Source: Hylemonella sp.
GTDB lineage: Bacteria > Pseudomonadota > Gammaproteobacteria > Burkholderiales > Burkholderiaceae_C
Length of the DNA stretch: 64,000 nucleotides
Assembly (NCBI GenBank): GCA_030680575.1
Contig: JAUXVI010000029.1
Location: 63,867-127,866, forward strand
Reading direction: 5' to 3'
The position numbers and the translations under genes are program-made. The notes beneath the pieces were generated by a model that worked only from the letters and a program-made list of their open reading frames with translations, had not been told where the DNA came from and made no database searches. The stretch's first letter is position 1. Each line of letters begins with the position of its first letter. Below, piece by piece: positions 25,987 to 41,534 of the stretch.

Positions 25987-26694
25987 TCACAGGGCGAGAC
26001 CTTCGCCCGCCTCCTCGTAGGTCCGCCCATCCCGGATGTGATAGATGCGCTTGAAGGTCGGGATGATCTTCTCGTCATGCGTGACCACGATGATGGCGGT
26101 GCGGTACTGCTGGGCCATCTGGTTCAGGATGCGCATGACACCCAGCGCGCGTTCGCTGTCCAGCGGCGCCGTGGGCTCGTCGGCCAGGATCACCGGCGGC
26201 TGGTTGGCCAGGGCCCGGGCAATCGCCACGCGCTGCTGTTCACCACCCGAGAGTTGCGAGGGTTCGGCCGCGGCGCGATGCGCCACGTCCAGTGCTTGCA
26301 GCAGCTCGCGGGCACGGGCACGGGCTTTGCCGTTGGGCTGGCCGGCCAGCATGGGCAGCAGGGCCACGTTGTCGGTCACGTCCAGGAAGGGGATCAGGTA
26401 GGGCGCCTGGAAGACAAAACCGATGCTGTCACGCCGCAGCGCACGCAGGTCGCGGAAGGTCCAACCGTTGTCGTAGATGGTCTGGCTGCCCAGCGTCATG
26501 CGCCCGGCCGTGGGCTCGATGATCGCGCCCAGGCACTTGAGCAGGGTGCTCTTGCCCGAGCCGGAGGGGCCGATCAGGCCCACCACCTCGCCCGGCGCCA
26601 CGCTCATGTTCACGTCCTTGAGCGCGTGCACGGCGGCGTCGCCTTCGCCGTAGCGCTTGCTCAGGCCTTCGATGCGGATGCCCAGTTCACTCAT
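25987..26694 (-). CDS. ABC transporter ATP-binding protein (MacB/DevA/LolD-type)
   Basis: Motifs present: Walker [10 protein letters not shown], signature [15 protein letters not shown] and Walker [12 protein letters not shown]. Confidence 0.85.
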
Positions 26695-26703
26695 GATCTG
26701 TCC

Positions 26704-27894
26704 TTAGCCAATCGCAGCGCCGGGGTCGACCCGCAACGCCACGCGGATGGCCAGCGTGCTGGCCAGGGCGCAGATCACCATCACGGCGATCAGGCCGCGC
26801 ACGGCGTCGCCGGTCTCCAGCAGTACGTACTTGGGAAAGAAGGGCGCCCACACGGTGGCCGCCGTCTTGCCCACGATGAAGCCGATCAGGCCCAGGCCCA
26901 GGGCCTGCTGCAGGATCATGCCGGCGATGGTGCGGTTGCGGGTGCCAATGAGCTTGAGCACGGCAATCTCGCGCAGCTTGCCCAGGGTCATGGTGTAGAT
27001 GATGAAGGCCACGATCGCCGCGCTAACGATGGCCAGGATCACCAGGAACATGCCGATCTGCTTGGCCGATGTAGCGATCAGCTTGGCCACCAGGATCTCC
27101 TCCATCTGCTCGCGCGTGTAGGCCTCCAGGTGTTTCCAGCGGCGGATTGGCTCGGCCACCTGTTCCGGGTGGGAGCCGGGCTGGATCTGCACCAGCACTG
27201 CGTTCACGTTGTGGTTGCTGCTTTGCGCGGCCTGTACGGCTTCCAGCAGGCCCGGCACGGCCGGGCGGTTCAGGGCCGGGTTGGCGGCGGTGCGCGCACG
27301 CTCGTTGAGGATGGCCTCGTTGTCTTTCAGAAACTGGGCCTCTTGCGCGTCGGCCAGCGGGATGAAGACCATGGGGTCCCCGCCTGAAGACACCATGCGC
27401 TGCGTCAAGCCGACCACGCGGTAGTCATGGCGGCGGATGCGGATCTGGTCGCCCAGGCGAAAACCCGTCTTCACATCGGCCACGGCTTCGTAATGGTTGC
27501 GCGTGAGCTGCCGCCCAGCCACCAGGTAGCCGGGTTCGCCCGGCTGGCCCGGCACCATGCCCACCACCATGGCGCGCACGTCCTGGCCGTCGCGTCGCAC
27601 CTGCATGGTGAAGTAGGTGACGTTGGCCGCGCGGGCCACGCCCGGCATACCCAGGATGGACCGATAGACGTCGTCGCGCAGGCTGGACGATTCGGCGTAC
27701 GGCCCCTGCGTGTCCTGCTGCACCACCCAGAGTTCGGCGCCGCTGTTGTTGAGCAGGGCGCGCGCGTCGTCCACCATGCCGCGGTAGACACCGGCCATGG
27801 TCAGCGTGACGCCGATCAGCAGGCCCAGGCCGATGCCGGTGAAGACGAACTTGGCCCAGGAGTGCAACACATCCCGGCCGGCCAGGCTGATCAT
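26704..27894 (-). CDS. ABC transporter permease, FtsX/MacB-like (DevC-type)
   Basis: It has an N-terminal TM segment, a large periplasmic domain and a C-terminal FtsX-type 3-TM bundle. It is 4-nt coupled to the adaptor gene. Confidence 0.8.
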   Translation of the reverse strand: MISLAGRDVLHSWAKFVFTGIGLGLLIGVTLTMAGVYRGMVDDARALLNNSGAELWVVQQDTQGPYAESSSLRDDVYRSILGMPGVARAANVTYFTMQVRRDGQDVRAMVVGMVPGQPGEPGYLVAGRQLTRNHYEAVADVKTGFRLGDQIRIRRHDYRVVGLTQRMVSSGGDPMVFIPLADAQEAQFLKDNEAILNERARTAANPALNRPAVPGLLEAVQAAQSSNHNVNAVLVQIQPGSHPEQVAEPIRRWKHLEAYTREQMEEILVAKLIATSAKQIGMFLVILAIVSAAIVAFIIYTMTLGKLREIAVLKLIGTRNRTIAGMILQQALGLGLIGFIVGKTAATVWAPFFPKYVLLETGDAVRGLIAVMVICALASTLAIRVALRVDPGAAIG

Positions 27895-29084
27895 CGCGCG
27901 GGCTCCATGAGTGCCGGCACCACCTTGATGCGGCTGCCGGCACTGATCTCTTTTTCGCTGTAGACAACGACTGTTGCGCCGGGCTGCAGGCCGTCGAGCA
28001 CACGCACCTGCCCATCGAGACTGGTCTCACCCAGACGCAGCGGTGCGAAGCGCAACTGGTCGTCCACCAGCAGCCAGGCACCCGCCTGACCCTGATGACG
28101 GCGAATGGCGGCGTTGGGCAGCACCAGCGAGCGCGGTGTTGCGGGTAGGCGCAAGGTGACCTCGGCCAGTTCGCCAACGGATAGCCCGGCAAACGGCTGT
28201 TCGAAGCCAATCTGCGCAATGCGTTCTTCCGTCACGCTGTCACCCTGCAGCTCCACACGAATGACCTTGCCCGCCAGCGGGCGGTGCGGCTGCGAACGCA
28301 GCACGATTTCGGCAGCCAGTCCCGGCGCCAGCCCGGCCGAACGGCCCTGGTCGAACCGCGCCTTGATCCACAGACTGGCCGGATCGATCAGCTTGAGCAC
28401 GGCTTGGCCGGCCACCACCGTGGAGCCGGGTTCGGCATCGCGCGACAGCACCACGCCGTCTTGCGTGGCCAGCAGGCGCGTATTGCGGCGCTGCTGCTGA
28501 AGGGCGGAGCGTTCGGCCTGGAGCCGGGTCAAATCCTGCGCGGCGGCAGACAGATTGGCCTGGCCAGCTCGCACCTGGGCCTCGGCCGAGAGCAGTTCCT
28601 GCTGACGGCCTTCCACCACGCCGGGGCTGACAAAGTTCTGCTGCCCCAACTCCTGGTAGCGTCGCGCATTGGCCCGGGCTAGCTCACGCCGGGCCTGGGT
28701 ATCGGCCACCTGGGCCTGTGCCGCTTCTTTCATGCTGGCCGCGCGTGCCAGCGAGGCATCGAGCGCCTCAACGCGCTGCTGTAGGTCCACCGGGTCCATC
28801 TCGGCCAGCAACTGCCCGGCCTTCACGCGGTCGCCGCCATCGACCAGTACGTGCAGCACACGGCCGGCACTGGTGGGGCCGATCAGGTAGCTGCGGCGGG
28901 CCTCCACCGTGCCGATTCCGTACAGTGCCGGTTGGATCGAGGCTTCGGTCGCGGTGACGACGGTCACGCGCACCGGTGCCAGCGGCCCGGAGCGTCGGAT
29001 GATGAAGACCAGCGCAGCCAGGAGCAGCAGGCCCATGATGCCCAGCACCAGCAGTCGTGGCGGGAGTGACTTGAGTTTTTTCAT
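27891..29084 (-). CDS. Efflux periplasmic adaptor (HlyD/MFP family)
   Basis: It has an N-terminal anchor, a lipoyl-like segment GRVLHVLVDGGDRVKAGQLLAEMDP, a long coiled-coil and a beta-barrel domain. Confidence 0.8.
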   Translation of the reverse strand: MKKLKSLPPRLLVLGIMGLLLLAALVFIIRRSGPLAPVRVTVVTATEASIQPALYGIGTVEARRSYLIGPTSAGRVLHVLVDGGDRVKAGQLLAEMDPVDLQQRVEALDASLARAASMKEAAQAQVADTQARRELARANARRYQELGQQNFVSPGVVEGRQQELLSAEAQVRAGQANLSAAAQDLTRLQAERSALQQQRRNTRLLATQDGVVLSRDAEPGSTVVAGQAVLKLIDPASLWIKARFDQGRSAGLAPGLAAEIVLRSQPHRPLAGKVIRVELQGDSVTEERIAQIGFEQPFAGLSVGELAEVTLRLPATPRSLVLPNAAIRRHQGQAGAWLLVDDQLRFAPLRLGETSLDGQVRVLDGLQPGATVVVYSEKEISAGSRIKVVPALMEPAR

Positions 29085-29689
29085 ACAGGCGTACGTAGGC
29101 TGCGCAGGTAGAGATCGAACACGCGGGGTGCTTCGGATCGCAGGGTGGAGACATGGCCGCTGAGCATGGACTGCATGACCAAGCCCTGCATGATGCCAAC
29201 GAAGAGGGTCGCCGCCGCCGGCGCATCCAGATCGGGGTCGGACTGCCCCGCCTGGATCGATTGTTTGATGAGGTTCAGCAGCAGCTGGCGATAGCTTTTC
29301 ATCAGCCCGCGCACGCTCTCTTTGAGCGGTGAGTCCGCAGGCTGCTGCAGTTCATGGAAGATCATGCGGGGTACGCCGGGATGGTGCGACACAAAGCCCA
29401 CATGCGCGTCGAACACCTTGCGCATGGCCTGCAGCGGCTCCGGGCTGGTCGCTGCGGCCGTCTGGATTTCGTGCAGCAGGTTCTCACGCACCCACTCCAT
29501 GGTGGCCAGCCAGATCGCCTCCTTGTTCTCAAAATGCTTGAACAGGGCCCCCTGGGTAACGCCGACGGATTGAGCAATGTCCGTGGTGGTGATCAGGGCC
29601 GGGCTCCGTTCCTGGGCCAGGCGCAAGGCTGCCGCGACGATTTCGGCCTGACGTGATGCCGTTGCAAGTCGTGGTGTGGAAGTAGACAT
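29081..29689 (-). CDS. TetR/AcrR family transcriptional regulator
   Basis: The N-terminal HTH is ITTTDIAQSVGVTQGALFKHFENKEAIW. I chose the ATG at 29689. The track uses an upstream TTG at 29719. Confidence 0.8.
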   Translation of the reverse strand: MSTSTPRLATASRQAEIVAAALRLAQERSPALITTTDIAQSVGVTQGALFKHFENKEAIWLATMEWVRENLLHEIQTAAATSPEPLQAMRKVFDAHVGFVSHHPGVPRMIFHELQQPADSPLKESVRGLMKSYRQLLLNLIKQSIQAGQSDPDLDAPAAATLFVGIMQGLVMQSMLSGHVSTLRSEAPRVFDLYLRSLRTPV

Positions 29690-29695
29690 GAGACC

Positions 29696-29717
29696 GGTAA
29701 GTAATAGGATACTTACC
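29696..29717. promoter_or_regulatory. Candidate TetR operator: perfect 8-bp inverted repeat GGTAAGTA-N6-TACTTACC
   Basis: The palindrome is read directly. It lies just upstream of the tetR ATG, in the divergent region shared with the DMT transporter gene. Confidence 0.45.
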
Positions 29718-29768
29718 AAGTATACATGGGTGACACGTCTGCACGCAAGCCAGGACTAAACTGGCCTC

Positions 29769-30713
29769 ATGCACATCCGGGTGTCCACGGACAAATCACA
29801 ACGTAGCCCGTGGGCGCGTCGCCTGGCGCTGACGCGGCACCGCGCCGGCCGGCTGGATCCGGCCGTCCAGGGCCTGCTCTGGACGCTGGTGGCCGGTATC
29901 TGCTTTGTGCTGCTCAACACCCTGTCGCGCTACCTGACGACGCAGATTGACCCCATGCAGTCGCAGTTCCTGCGTTACTTCTGTGGTCTGCTGGTCATGT
30001 TGCCGCTGGTCTGGCGTTTCGGTCTGGCGGCCTACCGGCCGCGGCACATTGGCGGGCAGTTCGTGCGCGGCCTGGTGCATACCGCCGCGTTGGGCCTGTG
30101 GTTCGTCGCACTGCCGCACATCTCGCTGGCCGACATGACGGCACTCGGTTTCACCACACCAATCTTTATCATGCTCGGCGCTTGGCTGTTCCTGCGCGAG
30201 CCGATGCGCTGGGAGCGCTGGTTGGCAGCGCTGGTGGGCTTCGGTGGCGTGTTGATCGTGGTCGGCCCCCAGCTTTCGGGTAGCGGCGGTTATTACAGCC
30301 TGGTGATGCTGGCTTCCTCGCCGGTGTTCGCAGCCTCCTTCCTCATCACCAAGGCGCTGACGCGCTACGAGAAAGCCGGTGTCATCGTGCTGTGGCAATC
30401 GGTCACCGTCACCTTGCTCAGCCTGCCGCTTGCCTTGCTGCACTGGCAGGCACCGACGCTGGCACAGTGGGTGGGCTACCTGGCGTGCGGACTGCTCGGC
30501 AGCAGCGCGCACTATTGCCTGACACGCTCGTACGGCGTCGCTGATATTTCGGCGACCCAATCGTTGAAGTTTCTCGACCTGGTCTGGGCCACGCTGCTGG
30601 GCTGGCTGGTGTTCAGCGATGTGCCTACTGCGACCTCGCTGATCGGCGGCCTCATCATCTCGGGCGCCACGCTCTGGATCGCACGGCGCGAGTCGCGCCG
30701 GTCATCAGCCTGA
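29769..30713 (+). CDS. DMT superfamily (EamA-like) transporter
   Basis: It has ten predicted TM helices in two EamA-type halves. It is divergent from the TetR-efflux operon. Confidence 0.75.
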   Translation: MHIRVSTDKSQRSPWARRLALTRHRAGRLDPAVQGLLWTLVAGICFVLLNTLSRYLTTQIDPMQSQFLRYFCGLLVMLPLVWRFGLAAYRPRHIGGQFVRGLVHTAALGLWFVALPHISLADMTALGFTTPIFIMLGAWLFLREPMRWERWLAALVGFGGVLIVVGPQLSGSGGYYSLVMLASSPVFAASFLITKALTRYEKAGVIVLWQSVTVTLLSLPLALLHWQAPTLAQWVGYLACGLLGSSAHYCLTRSYGVADISATQSLKFLDLVWATLLGWLVFSDVPTATSLIGGLIISGATLWIARRESRRSSA

Positions 30714-30719
30714 CAGCTC

Positions 30720-31181
30720 TCAGAACAGCCAGGGCACAAAGCGCCGCGTCTGCGCGCTGTAGGCGGCGTAGGCGGCATGCTGCTCGCGCATCCAGCGCTC
30801 CTCCAGCGTGGCCTTGACCACCAGTACCGCCAGCAGCACGCACCAGGCCACCCAGGCCAGCAGCAGGCCGGCGGTCCAGGCCAGAGCGGCCGCGCCGAGA
30901 AGGAAGGCGGTGTACATCGGGTGGCGCATCCAGCGGTAGGGGCCTTGCGTGACGAGCACGCCGCCGGTCTTGGGGATGGGGCGGATGTTGAAGTTGCCCA
31001 GGCGGTTGGTGCGCAGCGCCCAAACCGCCAGTAGCACGGCCCCTGCGGCCAGCACCCAGGCCAGCATCGGGATGGCCAGCACCAGCAGGGCGGGCACTGC
31101 CAGTGCGGCAAGTACAGCCAGCAGGCCGAACTGCAGGGCCACCAGCAGCAGGCTCGGGAGCTGGCGCGGGTCTTTTGTCAT
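30720..31181 (-). CDS. Isoprenylcysteine carboxyl methyltransferase (ICMT)/phospholipid methyltransferase-family membrane protein
   Basis: The sequence LVTQGPYRWMRHPMYTAFLL...EERWMREQHAAYAAY is a typical ICMT/PEMT C-terminal signature. Its ATG overlaps the stop of the upstream aminotransferase (ATGA). Confidence 0.65.
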   Translation of the reverse strand: MTKDPRQLPSLLLVALQFGLLAVLAALAVPALLVLAIPMLAWVLAAGAVLLAVWALRTNRLGNFNIRPIPKTGGVLVTQGPYRWMRHPMYTAFLLGAAALAWTAGLLLAWVAWCVLLAVLVVKATLEERWMREQHAAYAAYSAQTRRFVPWLF

Positions 31182-32335
31182 AGCTTGGCTAGGCGGTCCA
31201 GCGCCGTGTGCAATGTCTCGTCCTTCTTGGCAAAGCAGAAGCGCACCACACGCTGGTCGAAGCTGTTGCCGTAGAAGGCCGAGAGCGGAATGGCAGCGAC
31301 GCCGATCTCGCTGGTGAGCCATTGGCAGAACTCGGCCTCGCCCAGATCACTCACAGCCGAGATGTCGACGCACTGGAAGTAGGTGCCTTCGCCCGGCAGC
31401 ATGCGGAACTTGGTGCGCTTGAGGCCTTCGCGGAACAGGTCGCGTTTGCGCTGGTAAAAGGCCGGCAGCTCCAGATAGGGCCTGGGGTCGGCCATGTAGC
31501 TGGCCAGGCCGTACTGCACCGGCGTGTTGACGGTGAAGACGTTGAACTGGTGCACCTTGCGGAACTCGGCCGTCAGCGAGGCGGGCGCGGCGACAAAGCC
31601 GACCTTCCAGCCCGTCACGTGGTAGGTCTTGCCGAAGCTGGAGACGATGAAGGCGCGCGCCGCCAGACCGGGAAAACGTGCCGCGCTTTCGTGCTGCTGG
31701 CCGTCGAACACCATGTGCTCGTACACCTCGTCGGAGATCAGCAGGATGTCGGTCGGGTCCAGCAGGTCCTGCAGCTTGAGCATTTCCGCGCGCGTCCACA
31801 CCGTGCCGCTGGGGTTGTGCGGCGTGTTGGTGATGATGGCGCGCGTTTTCGGCGTGATGGCGGCCGCTATTCTGTCGAAGTCTGGCCGGAAGGTGCCGGG
31901 TGTCAGCGGCACGCGCACCACCACACCGCCGGCCAGCTCGATGTTGGGCACGTAGCTGTCGTAGCAGGGCTCGAGCACGATCACCTCATCGCCCGGGTGC
32001 ACGATGGCCAGGATGGCGGTGAGGATGGCCTGGGTGGCGCCGGCGGTGATGGTGATCTCGCTGGTGGCGTCGTAATCGTGGCCATAGAGCGCACTGATCT
32101 TGGCCGCCACCGCCTCGCGCAGCACCGGTACGCCGGTCATGGGCGGGTACTGGTTCAGGCCCTTTTTCATGGCATCGGTCACGGCGTCGACCAGGCGCGG
32201 GTCGCAGTCGAAGTCGGGGAAACCCTGGCCGAGGTTGACGGCGCCTTTTTCGGCTGCCAGCGCCGACATGACGGTGAAGATGGTGGTGCCGACGTTGGGC
32301 AGGCGGCTTTTGAGTTCAGGTGTTCTTGTATTCAT
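31178..32335 (-). CDS. PLP-dependent aminotransferase, class I (YbdL/methionine-2-oxoacid aminotransferase-like)
   Basis: It has VNLGQGFPDFDCDP...QYPPMTGVP... and SSFGKTYHVTGWKVG, which contains the PLP-lysine motif. Confidence 0.8.
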   Translation of the reverse strand: MNTRTPELKSRLPNVGTTIFTVMSALAAEKGAVNLGQGFPDFDCDPRLVDAVTDAMKKGLNQYPPMTGVPVLREAVAAKISALYGHDYDATSEITITAGATQAILTAILAIVHPGDEVIVLEPCYDSYVPNIELAGGVVVRVPLTPGTFRPDFDRIAAAITPKTRAIITNTPHNPSGTVWTRAEMLKLQDLLDPTDILLISDEVYEHMVFDGQQHESAARFPGLAARAFIVSSFGKTYHVTGWKVGFVAAPASLTAEFRKVHQFNVFTVNTPVQYGLASYMADPRPYLELPAFYQRKRDLFREGLKRTKFRMLPGEGTYFQCVDISAVSDLGEAEFCQWLTSEIGVAAIPLSAFYGNSFDQRVVRFCFAKKDETLHTALDRLAKL

Positions 32336-33413: not shown

Positions 33414-33751
33414 GGTGAATTCCAGCTAAAACTGGCGTTTATTATGCCTTGGGTGTCTAACAAGAGGCGCAAAATAAGCTGACTCGGGTGCTTGGCAGGA
33501 CGTACCGAAGATGAAGCGGTGAGGTGGCTTTGCCAGTTTTCCGCAGTTTATTAATGGACACCACCTCAGCCGTTTGCCAACTCAATGCAAATATTGAACA
33601 AGCACATAGATGCGGCAAGGATAAACAAACGATGAGCATCCAACCTGTTATTTCGCACTTTGCGATCTATATTGAGTTAGGTCGTTGCGACCATTGGGGC
33701 ATCGCAGCCCAACCGTTTGAACTGCCCCTCTTTGACCAAGGAGACATAAAA

Positions 33752-34201
33752 ATGGCTACTTTAGACGCAAGTAACGACGAAATTGAACTCTATCGAGCAA
33801 TGAGTAAGTTGGCTGGGACTTTGTTTCTTGAGTTCAACAAACAACTCGTTGTGGGTGTCCAAAAACTGACGGATGGAGTTGGTGGAAAAGGAGAGGTGCC
33901 TAGCGGCGTTTTGAGCACATTGCTTGACCGCTCCAACATTACTCAGTCTGAGGAGAAAGCGCTCCAAAAATACAGCAAAGAAGAGGTGTATCAAGTGTGG
34001 AAGAAGCACATTGAGTCCATAGACTACTCGATCTCGTTTCGGCCACGCGTCGAAAAGCCAGTTGAGAGTATCAATGTTTTAGCCCTCCCAGGGGAGAAGG
34101 TGACTGTTAACGAGGTTTCAAGTACTGGAGACATTAACATTCGGGCAAGTTGGGAGGTCGAAATCGACCTCGGAATTATTCGCGGGAAAGTTTCATGGTA
34201 G
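33752..34201 (+). CDS. Orphan hypothetical protein in an AT-richer islet
   Basis: The ATG at 33752 is preceded by AAGGAGA with 7-nt spacing. The open frame extends upstream to 33524, so the start is uncertain. I recognise no family motifs. Composition differs clearly from the flanks. Confidence 0.4.
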   Translation: MATLDASNDEIELYRAMSKLAGTLFLEFNKQLVVGVQKLTDGVGGKGEVPSGVLSTLLDRSNITQSEEKALQKYSKEEVYQVWKKHIESIDYSISFRPRVEKPVESINVLALPGEKVTVNEVSSTGDINIRASWEVEIDLGIIRGKVSW

Positions 34202-34859
34202 TACCGGGCTTCTCGCGATACCAAGCCTGCTGCGCCAGCCGCAACATCGGCCAATCCCCCTTGGTATCGCCATAGGCATGCACCTCCGGCTGGTGGTCCG
34301 GTGCCGCGCCGTAGGCCTGCGTCAGCCAGGCCTTGAGCCGCGCCACCTTCTCTTCCCCATGGCAGTTGGCCGTGGCCAAACGACCGGTGTAGCGGCCATC
34401 CACCACTTCCATCTCGGTGCACAACACCGCATCCACGCCCAGGCTGGCGCCGACCAGATGCATGTAGGGGCTGGTGGAGGCGGTGACGAGCACGCAACGG
34501 TGGCCGGCCTGCTGGTGTTGCACCAGTTGCTGCAGGCCCCAGGGGCGCCATTGTTGCGGCAGATATTCGAGCACAAAGGCCTGGGCACAGCGCTCGACGT
34601 CGGCCACTGAGCGGCCGGCCAGGGCAGCGTGCAGCAGCACGGCCTTGGCGCGGTGGTTGCTGACCAGCCGCAGCACATAGGCCACCAGCCAGGGGCTGCA
34701 GATGAACAGAACCCACAGCAGCGTGGGCAGACCCAGCAGGCGGCGCAGGAAGGGCAGCAGGGTGTCGCTGCGGGTGAGCGTGCCGTCGAAGTCGAAGGCG
34801 GCCATCACCGGTCGGACGGCAGCGCGTTCGTCGGCCATCGGGTTCACGGCCTCGGACAT
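34176..34859 (-). CDS. HAD-IB family hydrolase (phosphatase)
   Basis: It has motif I AAFDFDGTLT and a later VLVTASTSP and GDTKGD (motifs II-IV). An alternative start lies at 34838. Its 3' end runs into the AT-rich islet. Confidence 0.65.
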   Translation of the reverse strand: MSEAVNPMADERAAVRPVMAAFDFDGTLTRSDTLLPFLRRLLGLPTLLWVLFICSPWLVAYVLRLVSNHRAKAVLLHAALAGRSVADVERCAQAFVLEYLPQQWRPWGLQQLVQHQQAGHRCVLVTASTSPYMHLVGASLGVDAVLCTEMEVVDGRYTGRLATANCHGEEKVARLKAWLTQAYGAAPDHQPEVHAYGDTKGDWPMLRLAQQAWYREKPGTTMKLSRE

Positions 34860-36391
34860 TGCACCTGCCCGCAGTAACGCACGCAGAACGGGCAGCCCGT
34901 CATGGGCAGCCACTCGGGAATGGCGTAGTAGCGCTGGAAGATCTCGCCCAGCACGCCCTGGCGGTAGGCCTCGAAGTGGAAGTTGCGGCCCTCCACGGCG
35001 TGGAAGGTGACGCCGTTCTGCACAAAGCTCAGCGGCTGCACGCTGTCGAAATACGGGCGGTAGCCGTCCAGCGGCGGCGGCTCGCCGTCCGAGACGATGA
35101 TGCGGACGGTCTTGCCGTCATAGATGGAATAGTCCACCAGCAGGTCGTCCTGCCGGGCGTGGAACTTGCCCGGGCCGAACACCGGCATGTACTGGCCGAG
35201 GGTGTAGCCGTAGGCGGCGGCGGGAGCATAAGCGTCGGCCATCAACACCGAATCCGGCGTGCGCACCTGGGCCAGCAGTTCGGCCGTCTTGAAGCTGCGC
35301 ACCATGCTGTAGTAGCGCGGCTTGCCCTGCCATTGCTCCACATGGGTGAAGCCGATGGCCACCACCGCCAGCACGTGCAGGGCCGTGAACCAGGCCATGC
35401 CTTTGGCGCAGCTTTTAAGGGCCGGCTGCGGCAGCGCGAAAGCCAGCAGCACGAAGACGAAGGGGTAGAAGGCCAGCACCCAGTGCAGGCCCACGGTTTT
35501 CTTCAGCGACAGCACGGCAAAAAACAGCAGCGGTACCACGATCAGCACGGCCACCAAGCGCTGCTGGCGCACGGTGTTGCCCAGCGCCGTCCGGTGCTTG
35601 AAGCCCAGCCACAGCACGGCCGGCGTGAGCAGGTAGGCGAGCATGCCCAGGTAGCTCAGCGGGTGGCTCCAGGCAAAGGAGGCGTCCTGGTTGCGATTGA
35701 TGGCGTTGAACATGATGTTGGCCCAGCCGTGGCCCATGTTCCACCACAGGTTGATCAGCGGCCCGGGCAGGGCGCACAGCACGACCAGGGCCAACGCCTG
35801 CCAGCGTTCACGCCGGTACAAAGCGAAGTACACCAGATAGGCTAGGCCCAGCACCACCGAAAAGTATTTGGAGAGAAAGGCGCAGCCGATGAAGACGCCG
35901 GCGAGGGCGTACAGGCGCCAGGCGCGGCCGTCCAGCGTCTCGCGCCGTTCGGCACGCAAGAGCGCACCGGCCGACAGCAGCGACCAGAAAATCAGCGGCG
36001 TGTCGGTGGTGATGAGGCTGTTGAGCCAGTTGACCGGTGCCAGCCAGAACAGCAACACCGCCCAGGCGGCGCGCTCGCGGCTCAGCGGCTTGAGCGCCCA
36101 CCAGAGCGTGGCACCCACGGCCAGCGGCAACAGCACCACTGGCAGGCGGATGGCCGAGCTGGCCTCGCCGAACAGCGTGCGCATGAGCCAGATCAGCCAG
36201 CCTACCATGGGCGGGTGGTCGTAATAACCCCAGTCGGGGTAAACGCCCCACCAGTAAAAGAAGGCCTCGTCGCCGGTGATGGGCAAGGCGGCGGCGATCC
36301 AGAAACGCAGGGCCAGCGAGGCGATGGCGGTGAAAAGCAGCCAGCGGGTCAGGCGGCCGGGGGCGGCGTCGGTATCAAAAGCAGGAGGCAT
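34844..36391 (-). CDS. GT-C fold, polyprenyl-phosphate-sugar-dependent glycosyltransferase (ArnT/PMT, GT39/GT83-like)
   Basis: About 11-12 TM helices are predicted. The first-loop acidic motif PITGDEAFFYWWG...YYDHPPMVGW is typical of the PMT_2/ArnT family. It has a soluble C-terminal domain. Confidence 0.75.
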   Translation of the reverse strand: MPPAFDTDAAPGRLTRWLLFTAIASLALRFWIAAALPITGDEAFFYWWGVYPDWGYYDHPPMVGWLIWLMRTLFGEASSAIRLPVVLLPLAVGATLWWALKPLSRERAAWAVLLFWLAPVNWLNSLITTDTPLIFWSLLSAGALLRAERRETLDGRAWRLYALAGVFIGCAFLSKYFSVVLGLAYLVYFALYRRERWQALALVVLCALPGPLINLWWNMGHGWANIMFNAINRNQDASFAWSHPLSYLGMLAYLLTPAVLWLGFKHRTALGNTVRQQRLVAVLIVVPLLFFAVLSLKKTVGLHWVLAFYPFVFVLLAFALPQPALKSCAKGMAWFTALHVLAVVAIGFTHVEQWQGKPRYYSMVRSFKTAELLAQVRTPDSVLMADAYAPAAAYGYTLGQYMPVFGPGKFHARQDDLLVDYSIYDGKTVRIIVSDGEPPPLDGYRPYFDSVQPLSFVQNGVTFHAVEGRNFHFEAYRQGVLGEIFQRYYAIPEWLPMTGCPFCVRYCGQVQCPRP

Positions 36392-36396
36392 GGGGG

Positions 36397-37308
36397 CTAG
36401 CGCAGGCTGATGTCTTGGCGGAACGCCGCACTATAAAGCAGGGCCAGCACGCCGATGGCCACCGCCAGCCAGAGTGTCAGCAGGCGCACCAGCACGGTGA
36501 TGCCCACCGCTGTAGCCAAGGGGGCGCCGTGCAGGGCCAGCAGGCCGGTCAGCAAGGCTTCGGTGCCGCCCAGGCCCGCGGGCAGCATGGACAGGGCGCC
36601 GCCAACCATGGCCAGGGCGTAGAAGCCGGCGGCCAGAAAGGGCTCGATCGGCCAGTCGAACAGTGCCTGGCAGACCAGCCAGGTGGCCAGGCCTTGGGCT
36701 ACCCAGGCCAGCAGCGTCAAGCCCAGCCAGCGCCAGGGGCGCGTGGCCAGGCAGTGCCAGGCGGCGTGCAACCAAGGCATGCGGCTGAACAGCCGTTGCC
36801 TGAAGGTGACCAGCAGGCCCAGCACCAGCAGCGCTGCGGCCGCGGCGGCAGTACCGAGTTGCAGCTGCCAGGCCGCAAGGTCCGGCCACTGCAGCAGCCA
36901 CCACAGCCCCGGCAGCGTGAGCAGCAGCAGGCCCAACAGGTCGGCCAGGCGCTCGGCGCCGAAGATGGCCAAGCTGTCGGCAGCGCCCAGCGGCGGGCGA
37001 AGCATCAGGCCGCGCGCGGCTTCACCCACATTGCCGGGGGTGGGCGTGAAGGTGTAGCCGGCCAGATACAGGCGCAGCCCCTGCAGCGGGCCCAGTGGGC
37101 GGCCGTAGTGCGCCATCCACAGGCGCCAGCGCTGGCCGCGCAGCAGGTAGTTCAGCACGCACAGCGCGGCGGCCAGTGCACCGGCGGGTGACCACAGCGC
37201 GGTGAGCCGGGTTGTCGATGCCGCGTTGCCAGTCAGCAGCAGCACCAGGGCATAGGCGGTGGCAGCAGCGCCGAGGGCCAGCAGCAGTTGTTTGAGCGGC
37301 AGCTTCAA
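36397..37308 (-). CDS. UPF0104 / LPG_synthase_TM (MprF flippase-like domain) membrane protein
   Basis: It is an eight-TM protein with an LNYLLRGQRWRLW motif near TM2, as in UPF0104-family members. It is tightly coupled to both neighbours. Confidence 0.55.
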   Translation of the reverse strand: MKLPLKQLLLALGAAATAYALVLLLTGNAASTTRLTALWSPAGALAAALCVLNYLLRGQRWRLWMAHYGRPLGPLQGLRLYLAGYTFTPTPGNVGEAARGLMLRPPLGAADSLAIFGAERLADLLGLLLLTLPGLWWLLQWPDLAAWQLQLGTAAAAAALLVLGLLVTFRQRLFSRMPWLHAAWHCLATRPWRWLGLTLLAWVAQGLATWLVCQALFDWPIEPFLAAGFYALAMVGGALSMLPAGLGGTEALLTGLLALHGAPLATAVGITVLVRLLTLWLAVAIGVLALLYSAAFRQDISLR

Positions 37309-38159
37309 AGCCGCGAGCCCAGAAACAGCAGCAGCCAGGCGGCGCCGGCCAAAAGGATCCAGGGGTCGCGCAGCAGGTCGCGTGCCACGTCCTCACCGCG
37401 GCCGCGGTGGACCTGGTAGGCGTAGCGCAGCAGGCCGAAGATCACCACCGGCACGGTGTAGACCAGCCGCTCGCCGTGCTGCGCCTGCGCTTCCGCGCTG
37501 GTGGCATACAGGCTGTACATGGTGATGGTGGCGGTCATGGTGACGGCCATCAGGGTGTCGAGCAGGGCGGCCGGGTAGTGTTCCAGCACGGCACGCTGCT
37601 GCTCGGGGTTGTGGAAGGTCTCAGCCTTGCGCTTGGAAAAGCCCAGGAACAGGGCGATGAACAGGCCGGTGAGCAGCAGCCAGCGCGAAGGCGGAATGCC
37701 AACGGCCGAGGTGCCGGCCAGCAGGCGCAGCATGAAACCGGTGGCAATGATGGACACGTCCACCACCGGCACGTGCTTGAGGCGCCAGGAGTAGGCCAGA
37801 TTCAAGGCCACGTAAAGCGCCAGCAACAGCAGCAGCACGCGGTTGTTGGCCGCCAGCGCCAGACCAGCTAGCCCCAGCAGGACGGCCAGGGTGAAGGCCG
37901 CAGGCACAGTGACGGCACCGCTGGCCAGCGGCCGGTGGCACTTGTCCGGGTGTAGCGCATCACTGGCGCGATCACGCCAGTCGTTGAGGATGTAGACCAG
38001 ACTGGACATGCAGCAGAAGGCGGCAAAGGCCAGCGCGGCGCGCAGCACCAACGGGCCCTCGTGCCAGGCGTGAGAAAACAGCAGACCGGCGAAGACAAAG
38101 ACGTTTTTCAGCCACTGGTGGGGCCGCATCAGGACGAGCAGGTGACGCAGTTGTTGCAT
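37305..38159 (-). CDS. UbiA-family prenyl-phosphate phosphoribosyltransferase (decaprenyl-phosphate 5-phosphoribosyltransferase-like)
   Basis: It has RPHQWLKNVFVF and the Asp-rich motif NDWRDRASD (NDxxDxxxD). The overall pattern resembles the Rv3806c-type subfamily rather than quinone prenyltransferases. Confidence 0.7.
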   Translation of the reverse strand: MQQLRHLLVLMRPHQWLKNVFVFAGLLFSHAWHEGPLVLRAALAFAAFCCMSSLVYILNDWRDRASDALHPDKCHRPLASGAVTVPAAFTLAVLLGLAGLALAANNRVLLLLLALYVALNLAYSWRLKHVPVVDVSIIATGFMLRLLAGTSAVGIPPSRWLLLTGLFIALFLGFSKRKAETFHNPEQQRAVLEHYPAALLDTLMAVTMTATITMYSLYATSAEAQAQHGERLVYTVPVVIFGLLRYAYQVHRGRGEDVARDLLRDPWILLAGAAWLLLFLGSRL

Positions 38160-38163
38160 GGGT

Positions 38164-38862
38164 TCAGGCCTGCGTGGGCCGCTGCCCGTACTTGTAGAAG
38201 AAGGTCAGCACCGTCCAGACGCCCCAACTGGTCAGCAGCGTGATGGGGAAGGCCCACAACACATCACTGAGCCAGTGCGCCCCGACCGACATGCGGGCCA
38301 CCCCGATCAGCAACCCGCCCGCGACACCGGTGGCCACCCAGCGCCAGCGGCGACGGGGGTCGAGCAGCATGAGCGAAGCGAAGAAAAAACCGCAGGCCAC
38401 ATGGCCGCTGACGAAGGCGCAGTTGTCGGTGCACTGGTTGGCCTGCACCAGTGCCGGTGTGAACTTGCGGTCGCCACCGAACTCGACCACGTCGAAGGGG
38501 CGGGCGCGCAGGTGGTGTTCCTTGACGGCCCAAGTGGCAAAACCGGGGCCCAGCAGCAGTGACAGGCCGACAAAGGCCAAGGCAATGCCAGCCCGGCGCC
38601 AACGGCGCAACAGGCTGACGACGATCCAGCCGGCCAGAAAGACCAGCGCCAGCGAGCGGAAAAGGTCGGGCGTGTATTCGTTGACCAGCTCCACCCACTG
38701 CCACTGCGCGGGGTTGATGGGCGGGGACGGCTGCAGGAAGTAGGCTGCCACGGCGATGTCCAACTGCGGCCAGAGCACCGGCAGCATGGCCACGGCAAAG
38801 GAGGTACCCAGCACGAGCAGAAAAACGGTGCGGGCGCTGAGGGATAGGGATGGTTTGAACAT
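38164..38862 (-). CDS. PAP2 (acid phosphatase/lipid phosphate phosphatase) family membrane protein
   Basis: All three PAP2 motifs are present: KEHHLRARP (Kx6RP), SGH, and RMSVGAHWLSD (Rx5Hx3D). I chose the start at MFKPSLS. The track ORF extending to 39225 overlaps cbiX out of frame. Confidence 0.8.
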   Translation of the reverse strand: MFKPSLSLSARTVFLLVLGTSFAVAMLPVLWPQLDIAVAAYFLQPSPPINPAQWQWVELVNEYTPDLFRSLALVFLAGWIVVSLLRRWRRAGIALAFVGLSLLLGPGFATWAVKEHHLRARPFDVVEFGGDRKFTPALVQANQCTDNCAFVSGHVACGFFFASLMLLDPRRRWRWVATGVAGGLLIGVARMSVGAHWLSDVLWAFPITLLTSWGVWTVLTFFYKYGQRPTQA

Positions 38863-38906: not shown

Positions 38907-39287
38907 TCAGGCGGCAGAGAGCGCGATGCGGGCAAGCAGGTCGGTCACGCGGGCATCTTCCCCGATGGCACCTTGCAAGTGCCAAGTGACGCCGGGGAAG
39001 CTGGTTTGCAGGTCTGCCACCAAACGCGGCAGGTCTTCGCGCGCGTGTTTGCCGACGCCAAGGAACATCGGCACGATGGTGATGGACTGCACGCCGGATG
39101 CCACCAGTTCGGCGGCGCAGGCTGGCAGGTCGGGTGCTGTCAGCTCCAGGTAGGCGCAGCGCACCAGGGCCTGCGGGTCGAGCTGGCGTGTGCGGGCCGC
39201 CACCGCTTCCATCGGTTGTGACCACAGCGGGTCGCGCGAACCGTGGGCGAACAGGATGATGCCGCGGTGCGGCAAGGTTGAACTCAT
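38907..39287 (-). CDS. cbiX: Small CbiX/SirB-type sirohydrochlorin chelatase
   Basis: 126 aa. The sequence GIILFAHGSRDPLW...VPMFLGVGKHAREDLP is typical of a short CbiX. Confidence 0.7.
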   Translation of the reverse strand: MSSTLPHRGIILFAHGSRDPLWSQPMEAVAARTRQLDPQALVRCAYLELTAPDLPACAAELVASGVQSITIVPMFLGVGKHAREDLPRLVADLQTSFPGVTWHLQGAIGEDARVTDLLARIALSAA

Positions 39288-39292
39288 GCGTC

Positions 39293-40402
39293 TTATCTCC
39301 GCAGCACCAGCCAGCCGAAGGTGCCCAGCGACAGCAGTGAATAGATCATGCCCGGCAGCGCTGCCGTCAGCCACGGCTGCCAGTGACGCAGTTCGCCGAT
39401 GTAGCCAAACACGTTGTTGAGGAAAAAGAAACTGATGCCGGCCATGACGCCGCCGAACACATAAACCGAAATGCCCTCGTTGCGGAAGTGCAGGTAGGCG
39501 AAGGGCAGGGCCAGCACCACCATGACCAGGCAGCTCAGCGGGTAGAACACCTTTTTCCAGAACTCGATTTCGTAGCGCTCGGCCGACTGGTTGTTGGCAT
39601 TGAGGTGGCGGATGTACTGGAACAGGTCGAGCGTGCTCATGCGGTCGGGCCGCAGCACGGCAGCTGACACCATTTCGGAGGTGATCTGGGTCGGCCAGCG
39701 GAAGTTCGCAATCTGGGTGCGTTCGACGCGCGATGCCTCGGTACCACGCGAGGTGAATTCGATGCGCTCGGCCTGCTCCAGCAGCCAGGCTTCGTCGCTC
39801 TCGAACTGTGCCGTAGGGGAACGGGTCATCGACACCAGCAGCCCTTTGTTGTCGAACTCGAAGACGCGCACGCCACGCATACCGCCGTCAGATGCCAGCG
39901 CATTGACGTTGACGGCAAACTGGCCGTAGGGCTGTTTCTCGCGCAGCCAGGCGCCGGTCTGACCGACCGTGATGTTGCCCTGGTAACGCGCCTTGAGCAG
40001 TTGGGAGGTGCGGTCGGCCCAGGGGGCGAGGAAATCACCGATGACAAAGGTCAGCACCACGAACACGGCGCCCACGGTCATCAAGGTGCGCAGGGCACGC
40101 CACGGCTCCAGGCCGCTGGTGCGCAGGATCGTGAACTCCGAGCTTTGCGCCATGCGGGTCATGACGTAGATGGTGCCGATCAGCACCGTGATCGGCAGCA
40201 GCTCGTACAGGTGATTGGGGACCTGCAGCGCCACATAGCTCAGGGCCTGCGGCAACTGGTAACCGGCACCGATGCCCGGGCGGCCGATCGAGGGCAGCTG
40301 ATCGACAAAGTCGAAGAAGGAGAACAGCGCGAGAAAGGCCAGCGTGACGAAGGTCACGGCGGTCAACACTTCGGCGTGCAGGAGGCGACGGATGGTTTTC
40401 AT
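39293..40402 (-). CDS. lptG: LPS export ABC transporter permease LptG
   Basis: It is a YjgP/YjgQ-family six-TM protein with a periplasmic beta-jellyroll. It follows lptF with a 4-nt overlap. Confidence 0.8.
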   Translation of the reverse strand: MKTIRRLLHAEVLTAVTFVTLAFLALFSFFDFVDQLPSIGRPGIGAGYQLPQALSYVALQVPNHLYELLPITVLIGTIYVMTRMAQSSEFTILRTSGLEPWRALRTLMTVGAVFVVLTFVIGDFLAPWADRTSQLLKARYQGNITVGQTGAWLREKQPYGQFAVNVNALASDGGMRGVRVFEFDNKGLLVSMTRSPTAQFESDEAWLLEQAERIEFTSRGTEASRVERTQIANFRWPTQITSEMVSAAVLRPDRMSTLDLFQYIRHLNANNQSAERYEIEFWKKVFYPLSCLVMVVLALPFAYLHFRNEGISVYVFGGVMAGISFFFLNNVFGYIGELRHWQPWLTAALPGMIYSLLSLGTFGWLVLRR

Positions 40403-41511
40403 GCGGTCACCTGGCTCCGGGCTGCGGCTCGTGCCGCCAGCAGCCGTCGCCAACTCCAGTTGTAGTGCCGCATGGTCAACAACAGCATGGAGGCGGCCAG
40501 CACACCGCCATGCAGCAGGATCACGAAGGGGATGAAACCGATCTTGCCGGTGCTGATCCAGGCCTGGCCCAGATTGAGCAGGTTGAGATAGACCTGAAAC
40601 AGCAGCAAGGAAACCACCAGATTGCCGGAGCGACCCAGGCGCGGGTTCACGCGCGAGGTTGCCACCGCCAGGATCATCAGATTCAGCGCCGCCAGGGCAA
40701 AACCCAGGCGCCAGGAGATTTCACCCAGGTGATGCGTCGTCGGTTTGCGAATCAGCTCCAGGGTGGACACGGTGTTGAGAGGGATTTCAGCCTGGCTGCC
40801 CAACTGGTCCTGCGTCACCTGGATGCTGTAGCGCTCGAACTCGCTGAGCTTGAAGTCCGACTTGCCGATGCTGTTTTCCAGGCGCTGGCCGTTGCCCAGG
40901 ACGAGAAAACGTTCGTCGCCGATCAGCTCGATGCGGCCACTGCGCGCTGACGTCACGGTTTCCTTGCCCCGTTCGGTGGTGGCGATGAACACGTTGCTGG
41001 CGGAATGCTCGCTCAGCAGGCTTTTCTCGACGAAAAACACGCGGGTGCCGCCTGCCGACTCTTGGAACTGGCCGGGTTGCACCCGGTCCAGGTCACCGCG
41101 GTTTTCATAGTGGGCACGCATGTCCTCGACCTGCTTATTCGACCACGGCAGCACGAGCAGCGCCAATGTCGCGATGGCCAGCAGGATCGGCCAGGCAAAG
41201 CGCAGCAGGGGGGCCAGCAGGTTCCACAGTCCGACGCCGCTGGAAAACCAGATCACCATTTCACTGTCGCGGTACAGGCGCGACAGGGTGCCGACCGTGG
41301 CCACAAACAGGCCCATGGTCATGATGTTGGGCAGGAAGGACAGCACGTTGTAGCCCATCACCAGCATCACATCGGACGGATTGAAGCTGCCGCGCGAGGC
41401 CGCACCGAGCGTGCGGATCAGCGTCATGGTCATGACCACCGTCACCAGGACGATCAGCGTGGCGCCGAAACTGCGCGCCAGCTCCTTGCGGATGGAGGAA
41501 TGGAATAACAT
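40399..41511 (-). CDS. lptF: LPS export ABC transporter permease LptF
   Basis: It belongs to the YjgP/YjgQ family. It is divergent from pepA, as in E. coli. Confidence 0.8.
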   Translation of the reverse strand: MLFHSSIRKELARSFGATLIVLVTVVMTMTLIRTLGAASRGSFNPSDVMLVMGYNVLSFLPNIMTMGLFVATVGTLSRLYRDSEMVIWFSSGVGLWNLLAPLLRFAWPILLAIATLALLVLPWSNKQVEDMRAHYENRGDLDRVQPGQFQESAGGTRVFFVEKSLLSEHSASNVFIATTERGKETVTSARSGRIELIGDERFLVLGNGQRLENSIGKSDFKLSEFERYSIQVTQDQLGSQAEIPLNTVSTLELIRKPTTHHLGEISWRLGFALAALNLMILAVATSRVNPRLGRSGNLVVSLLLFQVYLNLLNLGQAWISTGKIGFIPFVILLHGGVLAASMLLLTMRHYNWSWRRLLAARAAARSQVTA

Positions 41512-41534
41512 TGGTCGGAAGGAAAACCGCAATT

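Follow-up and report, generated by a model that had tools for sequence, protein, structure and literature searches.

We have analysed a cluster of five genes on the minus strand of a 64,000-nucleotide stretch of Hylemonella sp. DNA (GenBank assembly GCA_030680575.1, contig JAUXVI010000029.1), which we call the window; the cluster occupies positions 34176 to 38862. We consider it probable that this region encodes a periplasmic glycosylation module of the type that combines a lipid-linked donor, a flippase and a GT-C glycosyltransferase, and that the sugar concerned is a pentofuranose, by default D-ribofuranose. The general scheme has been demonstrated experimentally for the O antigens of Citrobacter youngae (Kelly et al., PNAS 2024; PMC11127046).

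In the pathway that we propose, a UbiA-superfamily enzyme would transfer ribose-5-phosphate from phosphoribosyl pyrophosphate (PRPP) to undecaprenyl phosphate at the cytoplasmic face of the membrane; the family of this enzyme is established by the matches given below, and its lipid and its product are predicted. A HAD-IB phosphatase, cytoplasmic and probably membrane-associated, would remove the 5-phosphate to give undecaprenyl-phosphate-ribofuranose, and a UPF0104 protein, to judge from its position and by analogy with MprF, would flip this polyprenyl-phosphate-ribose donor to the periplasmic leaflet. There a GT-C enzyme, whose modelled fold is ArnT-like, would pass the sugar to an acceptor that is a conserved part of the envelope, most likely lipid A or the inner core of lipopolysaccharide (LPS); the transfer would probably be inverting and hence give an alpha-linkage. 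In Curvibacter and Hylemonella the module appears to have been joined to an lptFG-cbiX unit and to have gained a LpxF-like periplasmic phosphatase of the PAP2 family. Rather than working on the donor, this enzyme more likely acts at the acceptor end, where it might for instance strip a phosphate from lipid A.

Conservation of the module and family of the synthase

A scan of species-representative genomes returned 534 relatives. The loci considered here are the best 80 of these 534, all from Comamonadaceae (Curvibacter, Hylemonella, Polaromonas and a few Rubrivivax/Burkholderiales), and they were compared by tblastn with the proteins of the window; 65 of them carry enough downstream sequence, and 71 enough upstream sequence, to be informative. 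Counted at the species level, the genes for UbiA, UPF0104, GT-C and HAD stand in the same order in 60 of the 65 loci, and this arrangement is therefore not a matter of chance. Of the remaining five loci, four retain GT-C alone and one retains GT-C together with HAD, which puts the HAD gene in 61 of the 65. The PAP2 gene, by comparison, is present in 24 of 71 related loci and missing from 47. Because the order of the four genes is retained so widely and PAP2 in so few loci, the conserved unit is one of four genes; PAP2 and the linkage to lptFG, which is seen in 31 of the 71 loci, are lineage-specific additions. In eight of those 31, cbiX is followed directly by UbiA, without PAP2. The original prediction had proposed a complete five-gene pathway. 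Its core stands, as does the genetic coupling of UbiA to the GT-C and to the UPF0104 flippase-like protein, but the claim of completeness was too strong, since PAP2 is accessory.

Judged by sequence comparison across genera, conservation of the module looks like that of housekeeping genes. The median identities among the Comamonadaceae loci are 66% for GT-C and 76% for UbiA, and that for LptF is 73%. In Polaromonas the four genes form a stand-alone operon amid unrelated metabolic genes, and the conservation of its upstream neighbours extends to at least 14 species-level genomes.

A few loci carry a smaller set. In Burkholderiales bacterium PBB1 (locus L067, 8904-11476) only UbiA and GT-C are found, inserted between tgt and queA, and three further loci (L065, L076 and L080) likewise have UbiA and GT-C while HAD and UPF0104 genes are absent from the vicinity. 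In these cases phosphoribose itself might be transferred, unless dephosphorylation and flipping of the donor are achieved in some other way.

The synthase gene (37305..38159, minus strand, 284 aa) encodes a protein that matches Pfam PF01040 and appears to be a polyprenyl-phosphate 5-phosphoribosyltransferase of the PPPRS/DPPRS type. It scores 253.5 bits on NF008977, the model for decaprenyl-phosphate phosphoribosyltransferase, above the equivalog cut-off of 234. On the models for quinone, heme, chlorophyll and archaeal-lipid prenyltransferases, by contrast, it reaches at most about 50 bits, against cut-offs of more than 200. In the PDB it matches the Mycobacterium tuberculosis DPPRS (8J8J) with E=1.1e-35 over residues 9-277, and the next-best entry, a chlorophyll synthase, reaches only E=1e-4. 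Residues N59, D60, D63, D67, R177 and E180, that is, the NDxxDxxxD motif of the cytoplasmic loop and the arginine and glutamate of loop IV, are invariant among 20 homologs, and they are the counterparts of residues mutated in ORF15 by Kelly et al. (PMC11127046). The gene is 99% identical to its counterpart in the metagenome-assembled genome Curvibacter sp. PD_MW3, and C. delicatus NBRC 14919 carries one that is 96% identical, which would place the window in a Curvibacter genome. The enzyme thus belongs with Rv3806c, the PRPP-dependent phosphoribosyltransferase, as had been predicted, and a check by model scores and PDB match of whether it groups with quinone or heme prenyltransferases found that it does not.

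Homologs are labelled '4-hydroxybenzoate polyprenyltransferase' in some sources, and this label would fit an account in which the clustered genes are functionally unrelated neighbours and UbiA is an ordinary quinone, heme or chlorophyll prenyltransferase. We regard that account as scarcely credible. It is contradicted by the model scores on both sides of their cut-offs, by the distance between the 8J8J match and the next one, and by the retention of gene order across genera, together with a pairing of GT-C and UbiA that reaches very distant lineages. On these grounds a quinone or heme prenyltransferase was rejected as the identity of UbiA and can be called effectively refuted.

Phosphatases, flippase and sugar

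Two phosphatases are encoded in the cluster, and it is important to decide which of them would act on the donor. The HAD protein (34176..34838, minus strand, 220 aa if counted from the ATG at 34838; the gene could also start at 34859 or 34913) matches PF12710 with E=8e-44, TIGR01490 (HAD-IB) with 127.7 bits against a cut-off of 98.3, and TIGR01488 with 88.2 bits against 45. It carries the motifs DFDGT (the DxDxT nucleophile) and YGDTKGD, it has no signal peptide, and its cap contains a hydrophobic segment. In the PDB it matches only an uncharacterised HAD protein (3FVV) and a phosphoserine phosphatase. Similar proteins adjoin the synthase elsewhere. On the Lactococcus plasmid pLLF27D (L084), where the order is a 533-aa membrane protein, synthase, HAD-IB and GtrA, the HAD-IB protein is 26% identical to that of the window over its full length (E=5e-15). 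In a faecal contig deposited as phage (L086; UbiA, HAD, SMR/EamA, NAD-epimerase, DUF6044) the HAD protein is 34% identical, again at full length (E=7e-36). For ORF15 of C. youngae, experiments have shown that the HAD domain, which is there part of the synthase protein, removes the 5-phosphate (PMC11127046); the products that Kelly et al. saw had m/z 513 (farnesyl-P-Rib-5-P) and m/z 435 (farnesyl-P-Rib). It is from this proven domain and from the conserved gene pairing, rather than from orthology, that we propose the HAD protein as the 5-phosphatase. By analogy and family assignment, then, the HAD-IB protein is likely to be the donor 5-phosphatase, with PAP2 doing something else.

The PAP2 protein (38164..38862, minus strand, 232 aa) matches PF01569 with 57 bits, and its motifs lie at K114x6RP, S152GH and R190x5Hx3D. 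Its best NCBIfam match is the model of the lipid A 4'-phosphatase LpxF (NF045633), covering positions 8-216 of 217 with 93.9 bits. The family cut-off is 400, so that the protein would be described from sequence as LpxF-like and not as an LpxF ortholog. The LpxF model is also the best match for all 25 members of the PAP2 family that we compared (the window protein and 24 homologs), and the automatic annotation of the Joint Genome Institute uses the LpxF name too. The topology predicted by the positive-inside rule places the catalytic motifs in the periplasm. A structure model compared by Foldseek gave weak, generic PAP2 matches only (YodM, PhoN, LpxE and PgpB; E≥0.016); its periplasmic loop 116-152 has low confidence, and the model leaves the substrate undecided. 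A profile search of the PDB returned PgpB and acid phosphatases only.

A relative of this protein occurs in the metagenome contig ERZ724505 NODE-38 (L163, 13695-17190), in an operon with an ArnC-like GT2 and an ArnT-like PMT_2 GT-C and with no UbiA. The PAP2 protein encoded there is 29% identical to that of the window and also has LpxF as its best match. At a distance of about 4 kb there is a second GT-C, which belongs to the family of the window GT-C, and the operon has the look of a lipid A remodelling module in its own right. Since there is no sugar phosphate to remove in this operon, a role on the acceptor side is indicated for its PAP2.

The original prediction had cast PAP2 as the analogue of Rv3807c. 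In its fullest form this is a donor made as in mycobacteria, with PAP2 removing the 5-phosphate, possibly after flipping, and with the HAD protein unrelated or auxiliary. The PAP2 gene does stand directly upstream of UbiA, as in the Corynebacteriales order PAP2-DPPRS, and in Marivivens the synthase is followed by a 'divergent PAP2'. We compared the window protein by BLASTP with a genuine Rv3807c ortholog, taken from the Tsukamurella locus glf-glfT2-PAP2-DPPRS-aftB, and found similarity only around PAP2 motif 3, with E of about 0.02. The best NCBIfam matches of the Tsukamurella protein are undecaprenyl-diphosphatases, not LpxF. Moreover, the 47 loci that lack PAP2 keep UbiA-UPF0104-GT-C-HAD, the relative of PAP2 described above partners an ArnC/ArnT-like pair, and the HAD protein is the partner that is conserved across phyla. 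Assigning PAP2 the role of Rv3807c is thus probably wrong, and we consider the mycobacterial-style donor route improbable.

The remaining step on the donor side is flipping, for which the UPF0104 protein is our candidate, chiefly by analogy. Its gene (36397..37308, minus strand, 303 aa) encodes an LPG_synthase_TM membrane protein that matches PF03706 with 129.5 bits (gathering score 33.4), falls just below the cut-off of TIGR00374, and has about seven or eight hydrophobic segments; a search of the PDB found nothing. The family, also called 'PplT', is that of the MprF flippase domain, and its stand-alone members, such as GpgF, are predicted, though unproven, glycolipid flippases. No MATE, SMR or GtrA gene is present in the window cluster, where UPF0104 is the only small polytopic protein. 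The corresponding slot is filled by a MATE protein in the Citrobacter synthase cluster (PMC11127046), by GtrA in Lactococcus, in metagenome locus L151 and in nine metagenome loci, and by an SMR/EamA protein in L086. UPF0104 itself adjoins HAD and UbiA in four metagenome loci (L087, L088, L099 and L138) whose GT-Cs are about 30-35% identical to that of the window. Such non-orthologous displacement at one slot supports, as we infer, a role of UPF0104 in flipping the donor.

The identity of the sugar depends on whether the donor is epimerised. As the original prediction had stated, the window lacks DprE1/DprE2-like oxidoreductases. In a phmmer search with two DprE1-like and two DprE2-like queries, no DprE1-like match was found in the 64-kb window or in any of the 80 loci from Comamonadaceae; an epimerase gene is likewise absent from the 8 kb or so around the cluster. 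The same search found DprE1-like genes (FAD_binding_4 plus ALO) in 19, and DprE2-like genes (adh_short) in 18, of 80 metagenome loci that carry distant members of the GT-C family. Because DprE-like genes were not found in the window or in the 80 loci, D-ribofuranose is taken as the sugar by default, in agreement with the prediction. The metagenome loci with DprE1 and DprE2 would, from their gene content, be arabinofuranose versions of the module. Four of them (L087, L088, L099 and L138) have the order GT-C-DprE1-DprE2-HAD-UbiA-UPF0104, which in L099 is interleaved with an acyltransferase and a 529-aa open reading frame (ORF).

The most compact arrangement is found on the metagenome contig Ga0256837_1002006 (L151, 4651-9991; GC 0.29), a six-gene cluster UbiA-GtrA-DprE1-DprE2-GT-C-HAD whose GT-C and HAD belong to the same families as those of the window. 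It is a complete candidate system for D-arabinofuranose glycosylation outside Actinobacteria.

The GT-C glycosyltransferase and its acceptor

The glycosyltransferase gene (34844..36391, minus strand, 515 aa) encodes a protein that scores 73.5 bits on PMT_2 (PF13231) and 28 bits on PMT. It matches no NCBIfam model, those for ArnT included, and a sequence search of the PDB, again including ArnT, returned nothing at E≤1. A structure model was therefore needed. The AlphaFold2 model (pLDDT 82, pTM 0.81) has ArnT of Cupriavidus metallidurans (5EZM/5F15) as its best Foldseek matches, with E of about 1e-8 and TM-scores of 0.62-0.64 over about 557 columns, and the match includes the C-terminal periplasmic domain of about 150 aa. 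AglB, PglB and Pmt4 follow at E≥6e-5 (5e-4 for Pmt4), and no Emb or Aft arabinosyltransferase is among the 50 Foldseek matches listed. According to the model, therefore, the protein would have a GT-C(A) fold with an ArnT-like periplasmic domain.

A profile search over 1.84 billion representatives found 7,444 relatives, of which 301 have E≤1e-30 and are mostly full length; at this threshold the family comprises about 300 clusters at 50% identity. Two pairs of residues are invariant across members that are only about 30% identical: D41/E42, the Asp-Glu of the TGDE motif that follows the first transmembrane segment (residues 39-42), and R413/D416, the R..D pair of the periplasmic domain (D33/E34/R405/D408 in P0450 numbering). 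We fetched 80 metagenome loci with distant members of the family, 30-40% identical to the window protein. A UbiA synthase occurs in the flanks of 46 of them, in 35 within 300 bp; restricted to the 33 loci that have at least 2.5 kb on both sides, the count is 22.

A Cys-rich motif, GCPFCxRYCGQVxCP, lies at the C terminus of the window GT-C (residues ~497-513, window 34844-34900). It is invariant in close homologs and partly kept in the wider family as GxCxFxxRYF. The motif is periplasmic and of low confidence in the model, and it could form disulfides or bind metal.

Compared by BLASTP, the window GT-C shows no similarity to other GT-Cs that adjoin a synthase, namely the GT39 protein of Legionella adelaidensis and the 533-aa protein of Lactococcus, and so different GT-C families partner the synthase. 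In L. adelaidensis NCTC12735 'plasmid 11' (L083, 7001-9369) a phosphoribosyltransferase and a 'GT39' GT-C form a pair that immediately follows mlaFEDCB-bolA/ibaG-murA and a Nif3-like gene; the GT39 protein weakly matches the Leptospira LA_3751/3752 family.

Lipid A or the LPS core, which the original prediction suggested, is the acceptor that we favour, as a hypothesis with modest support: ArnT is the closest fold, the genes evolve like core genes outside polysaccharide loci, the linkage to lptFG recurs, and the PAP2 neighbour is LpxF-like. The recurrence extends beyond the Comamonadaceae loci, as lptFG lies in the flanks of three of the 80 distant GT-C loci (L097, L113 and L150, which differ in GC content), with the order lptF-lptG-GT-C in L150. 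By our estimate, with 0.8 Mb sampled and genomes of about 4 Mb, some 0.2 such cases would be expected by chance. These points fall short of establishing the acceptor, and we put forward the following only tentatively, as a possible reading that may well be wrong. In Comamonadaceae, and in other lineages with this GT-C family, lipid A or the inner LPS core would carry D-ribofuranose, an as yet undescribed modification, transferred by the ArnT-like GT-C from undecaprenyl-phosphate-ribofuranose. Before this, the LpxF-like PAP2 of Curvibacter and Hylemonella would take off a lipid A phosphate, so that an anionic phosphate would be exchanged for a neutral pentose. UPF0104 would be the first member of the MprF flippase family shown to act on a polyprenyl-phosphate sugar.

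The same donor pathway could serve other acceptors. If the sugar became a side chain of an O antigen, capsule or exopolysaccharide, as in C. youngae, lipid A and core would not be involved. The examples linked so far by experiment or structure are all polysaccharide side chains, and the Lactococcus example lies inside a polysaccharide cluster. In Curvibacter and Polaromonas, however, the operon is located outside any polysaccharide locus. The GT-C is conserved across genera in a housekeeping-like way, unlike serotype-specific enzymes, and it falls into the PMT_2/ArnT-like group, whereas ORF12 (GT136) is described as EpsG-like and dissimilar to existing GT families. We therefore think a polysaccharide acceptor unlikely. 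Alternatively, the GT-C could be a protein O-glycosyltransferase, PMT-like or TfpW-like, acting on periplasmic or surface proteins such as pilins. The Pfam matches to PMT and PMT_2 and the database label 'glycosyltransferase family 39' given to homologs point that way, as do the secondary structural matches to Pmt4 and the PglB/AglB oligosaccharyltransferases; there is also a precedent in the Pseudomonas aeruginosa pilin, which is modified from a lipid-linked D-arabinofuranose donor. Yet ArnT-type enzymes belong to the same PMT/PMT_2 Pfam families, so those matches do not discriminate, and ArnT is clearly the better structural match. Nor do any of the loci inspected have a gene for a pilin or another candidate substrate next to the cluster. 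Modification of proteins thus seems to us very unlikely.

Several observations weigh against the glycosylation module as we have drawn it, or against lipid A and core as its target. HAD and UPF0104 are both non-adjacent in four Burkholderiales loci and in most of the distant loci with GT-C and UbiA, so that their functions are either provided by genes at other sites or not indispensable. Some of the metagenome loci do not count as independent, since many share neighbours (such as DAHP synthase, a cNMP-binding protein and TctAB). The HAD protein resembles, weakly, the HAD domain of a fused HAD-UbiA protein that is not ORF15 itself (E=0.01; NF006088, E=0.002). An epimerase may be encoded elsewhere in the genome, beyond the window. 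On the acceptor side, PAP2 is missing from most genomes that have the module, its LpxF score is far under the family cut-off, and similarity of fold to ArnT leaves the acceptor unfixed. Literature searches on lipid A with ribofuranose and on the LPS of Curvibacter and Polaromonas found no Comamonadaceae glycan with ribofuranose. To our knowledge, flipping of polyprenyl-phosphate sugars by a UPF0104 protein has never been shown.

Related systems and genomic context

The closest described counterpart is the ORF15-ORF14-ORF12 set of C. youngae O1/O2, which provides synthase, HAD phosphatase, flippase and GT-C, and in which epimerases, where present, change the sugar (PMC11127046). The likeness lies in a PRPP-using UbiA-type synthase, a HAD-superfamily protein that would here be the 5-phosphatase, a small membrane protein that would here be the flippase, and a periplasmic GT-C. 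The components nevertheless differ. HAD and UbiA are separate genes here and are fused in ORF15; the flippase candidate is UPF0104/MprF-like rather than MATE; and the GT-C is PMT_2/ArnT-like, whereas ORF12, compared by description and probably of a different family, is a GT136 enzyme with a C-terminal carbohydrate-binding module. The Citrobacter genes reside in an O-antigen locus, whereas the present unit is conserved as a stand-alone or lptFG-linked one, with a LpxF-like PAP2 attached in some lineages. The original prediction had called the combination 'not a textbook system'. This is only partly correct, since the general scheme had been published in 2024 (PMC11127046). Literature searches for UbiA with GT-C in Gram-negatives found no description of the module, and Comamonadaceae are not named in the supplement of Kelly et al. 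What is new, then, is not the scheme but the candidate flippase of the UPF0104 family, a GT-C that resembles ArnT, conservation like that of housekeeping genes and the link to lptFG and a LpxF-like protein.

With the mycobacterial decaprenylphosphoryl-arabinose pathway (Rv3806c, Rv3807c, DprE1/DprE2, Emb/Aft) the module shares a homologous first enzyme and the use of a lipid-linked donor by GT-C enzymes outside the cytoplasm. It differs in that DprE1-like genes were not found in the window or the 80 loci, PAP2 is no Rv3807c ortholog, the GT-C resembles ArnT and not Emb/Aft, the lipid carrier is presumably undecaprenyl instead of decaprenyl, and HAD and UPF0104 are present. The ArnT system for 4-amino-4-deoxy-L-arabinose (ArnC, ArnE/F, ArnT; GT83) provides the best structural match for the GT-C, C-terminal periplasmic domain included, and shares with the module an undecaprenyl-phosphate-pentose donor (predicted here) and linkage to LPS genes. 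The GT-C nevertheless lacks a sequence match to the ArnT entries of the PDB or the ArnT models of NCBIfam, the donor would be made from PRPP via UbiA instead of from a UDP-sugar via a GT2, and the flippase family is different.

A further parallel is the galacturonosylation of lipid A and core in Rhizobium, which uses LpxE/LpxF phosphatases, the ArnT-like GT-Cs RgtD and RgtA-C, and the donor synthase RgtE. Its combination of a PAP2 lipid A phosphatase, an ArnT-like GT-C and a polyprenyl-phosphate-sugar synthase is the one that the LpxF-like PAP2 and the L163 operon suggest; the donor sugar and the synthase differ, and PAP2 is absent from most module-carrying genomes here. As for MprF, PplT and GpgF, membership of PF03706 and a repeated occurrence in glycolipid operons as predicted flippases are what UPF0104 has in common with them. 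Their known or proposed substrates are modified phospholipids, so that a polyprenyl-phosphate sugar would be new for the family.

If our interpretation is true, the PRPP-derived pentofuranose pathway does more than diversify the serotypes of O antigens: in a large group of Betaproteobacteria from fresh water and soil, among them Curvibacter, a genus of Hydra symbionts, it would serve an envelope modification that is inherited vertically and conserved in a housekeeping-like way. A large uncharacterised family of ArnT-like GT-Cs is defined, with a donor that can now be predicted, and the orphan UPF0104 family gains a concrete and testable class of substrate. The interpretation further suggests a new kind of LPS charge remodelling, relevant to resistance to antimicrobial peptides and to host recognition.

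What the original prediction observed in the sequence is confirmed. The five co-oriented, tightly packed minus-strand ORFs are present at the coordinates claimed, Pfam and NCBIfam agree on the five family assignments, and the quoted motifs (Kx6RP, SGH and Rx5Hx3D in PAP2, NDWRDRASD in UbiA, DFDGT in HAD, GDE in GT-C) are all found. The four junctions are, as claimed, gaps of at most 5 nt or overlaps: a 4-nt gap between PAP2 and UbiA, the overlap TTGA between UbiA and UPF0104, and 5-nt gaps between UPF0104 and GT-C and between GT-C and HAD, the last becoming an overlap of 16 or 70 nt with the alternative HAD starts.

Pfam and NCBIfam matches also place the cluster 3' of lptF-lptG-cbiX on the same strand, in keeping with the prediction. 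These context genes are lptF (40399-41532, minus strand; LptF TIGR04407, 354.4 bits), lptG (39293-40453, minus strand; LptG TIGR04408, 342.7 bits) and a cbiX-like gene (longest ORF 38907-39374, minus strand; CbiX PF01903), and pepA and holC lie upstream of the cluster region in divergent orientation. On its other side the cluster is bordered by a LysR regulator and an aminotransferase, and the window neighbours include no O-antigen or polysaccharide locus. A scan for promoters and terminators over 33-42 kb found nothing above shuffled expectation, and in particular no terminator-like site between lptFG-cbiX and the cluster. This null result is evidence neither for nor against co-transcription; lptF-lptG-cbiX and the cluster are possibly one transcription unit.

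Some features of the surroundings have no direct bearing on the glycosylation genes. The small gene for a CbiX-like chelatase, which separates lptG from the cluster, keeps this place in all 31 relatives with lptFG linkage. Its longest ORF runs about 80 nt into the 3' end of lptG, and it has no apparent link to glycosylation. Between the HAD and LysR genes lies an island of low GC content (33414-34200; about 0.53, against about 0.65 around it). The plus-strand ORF that it contains (33524-34201, with a likely true start at the ATG at 33753, after AAGGAG) converges on the 3' end of the HAD gene with an overlap of 26 nt. This ORF has no Pfam, NCBIfam or PHROGs match, and none of the 80 related loci carries a homolog; among them the spot is variable, spanning 0.7-7 kb with differing content. 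Further along the downstream side of the cluster, at window positions 25987-31322, Pfam matches identify an efflux unit (a MacB-like permease, a HlyD-family adaptor and a TetR regulator), a plus-strand EamA transporter, and a PEMT/ICMT-like membrane methyltransferase beside a class I/II aminotransferase.

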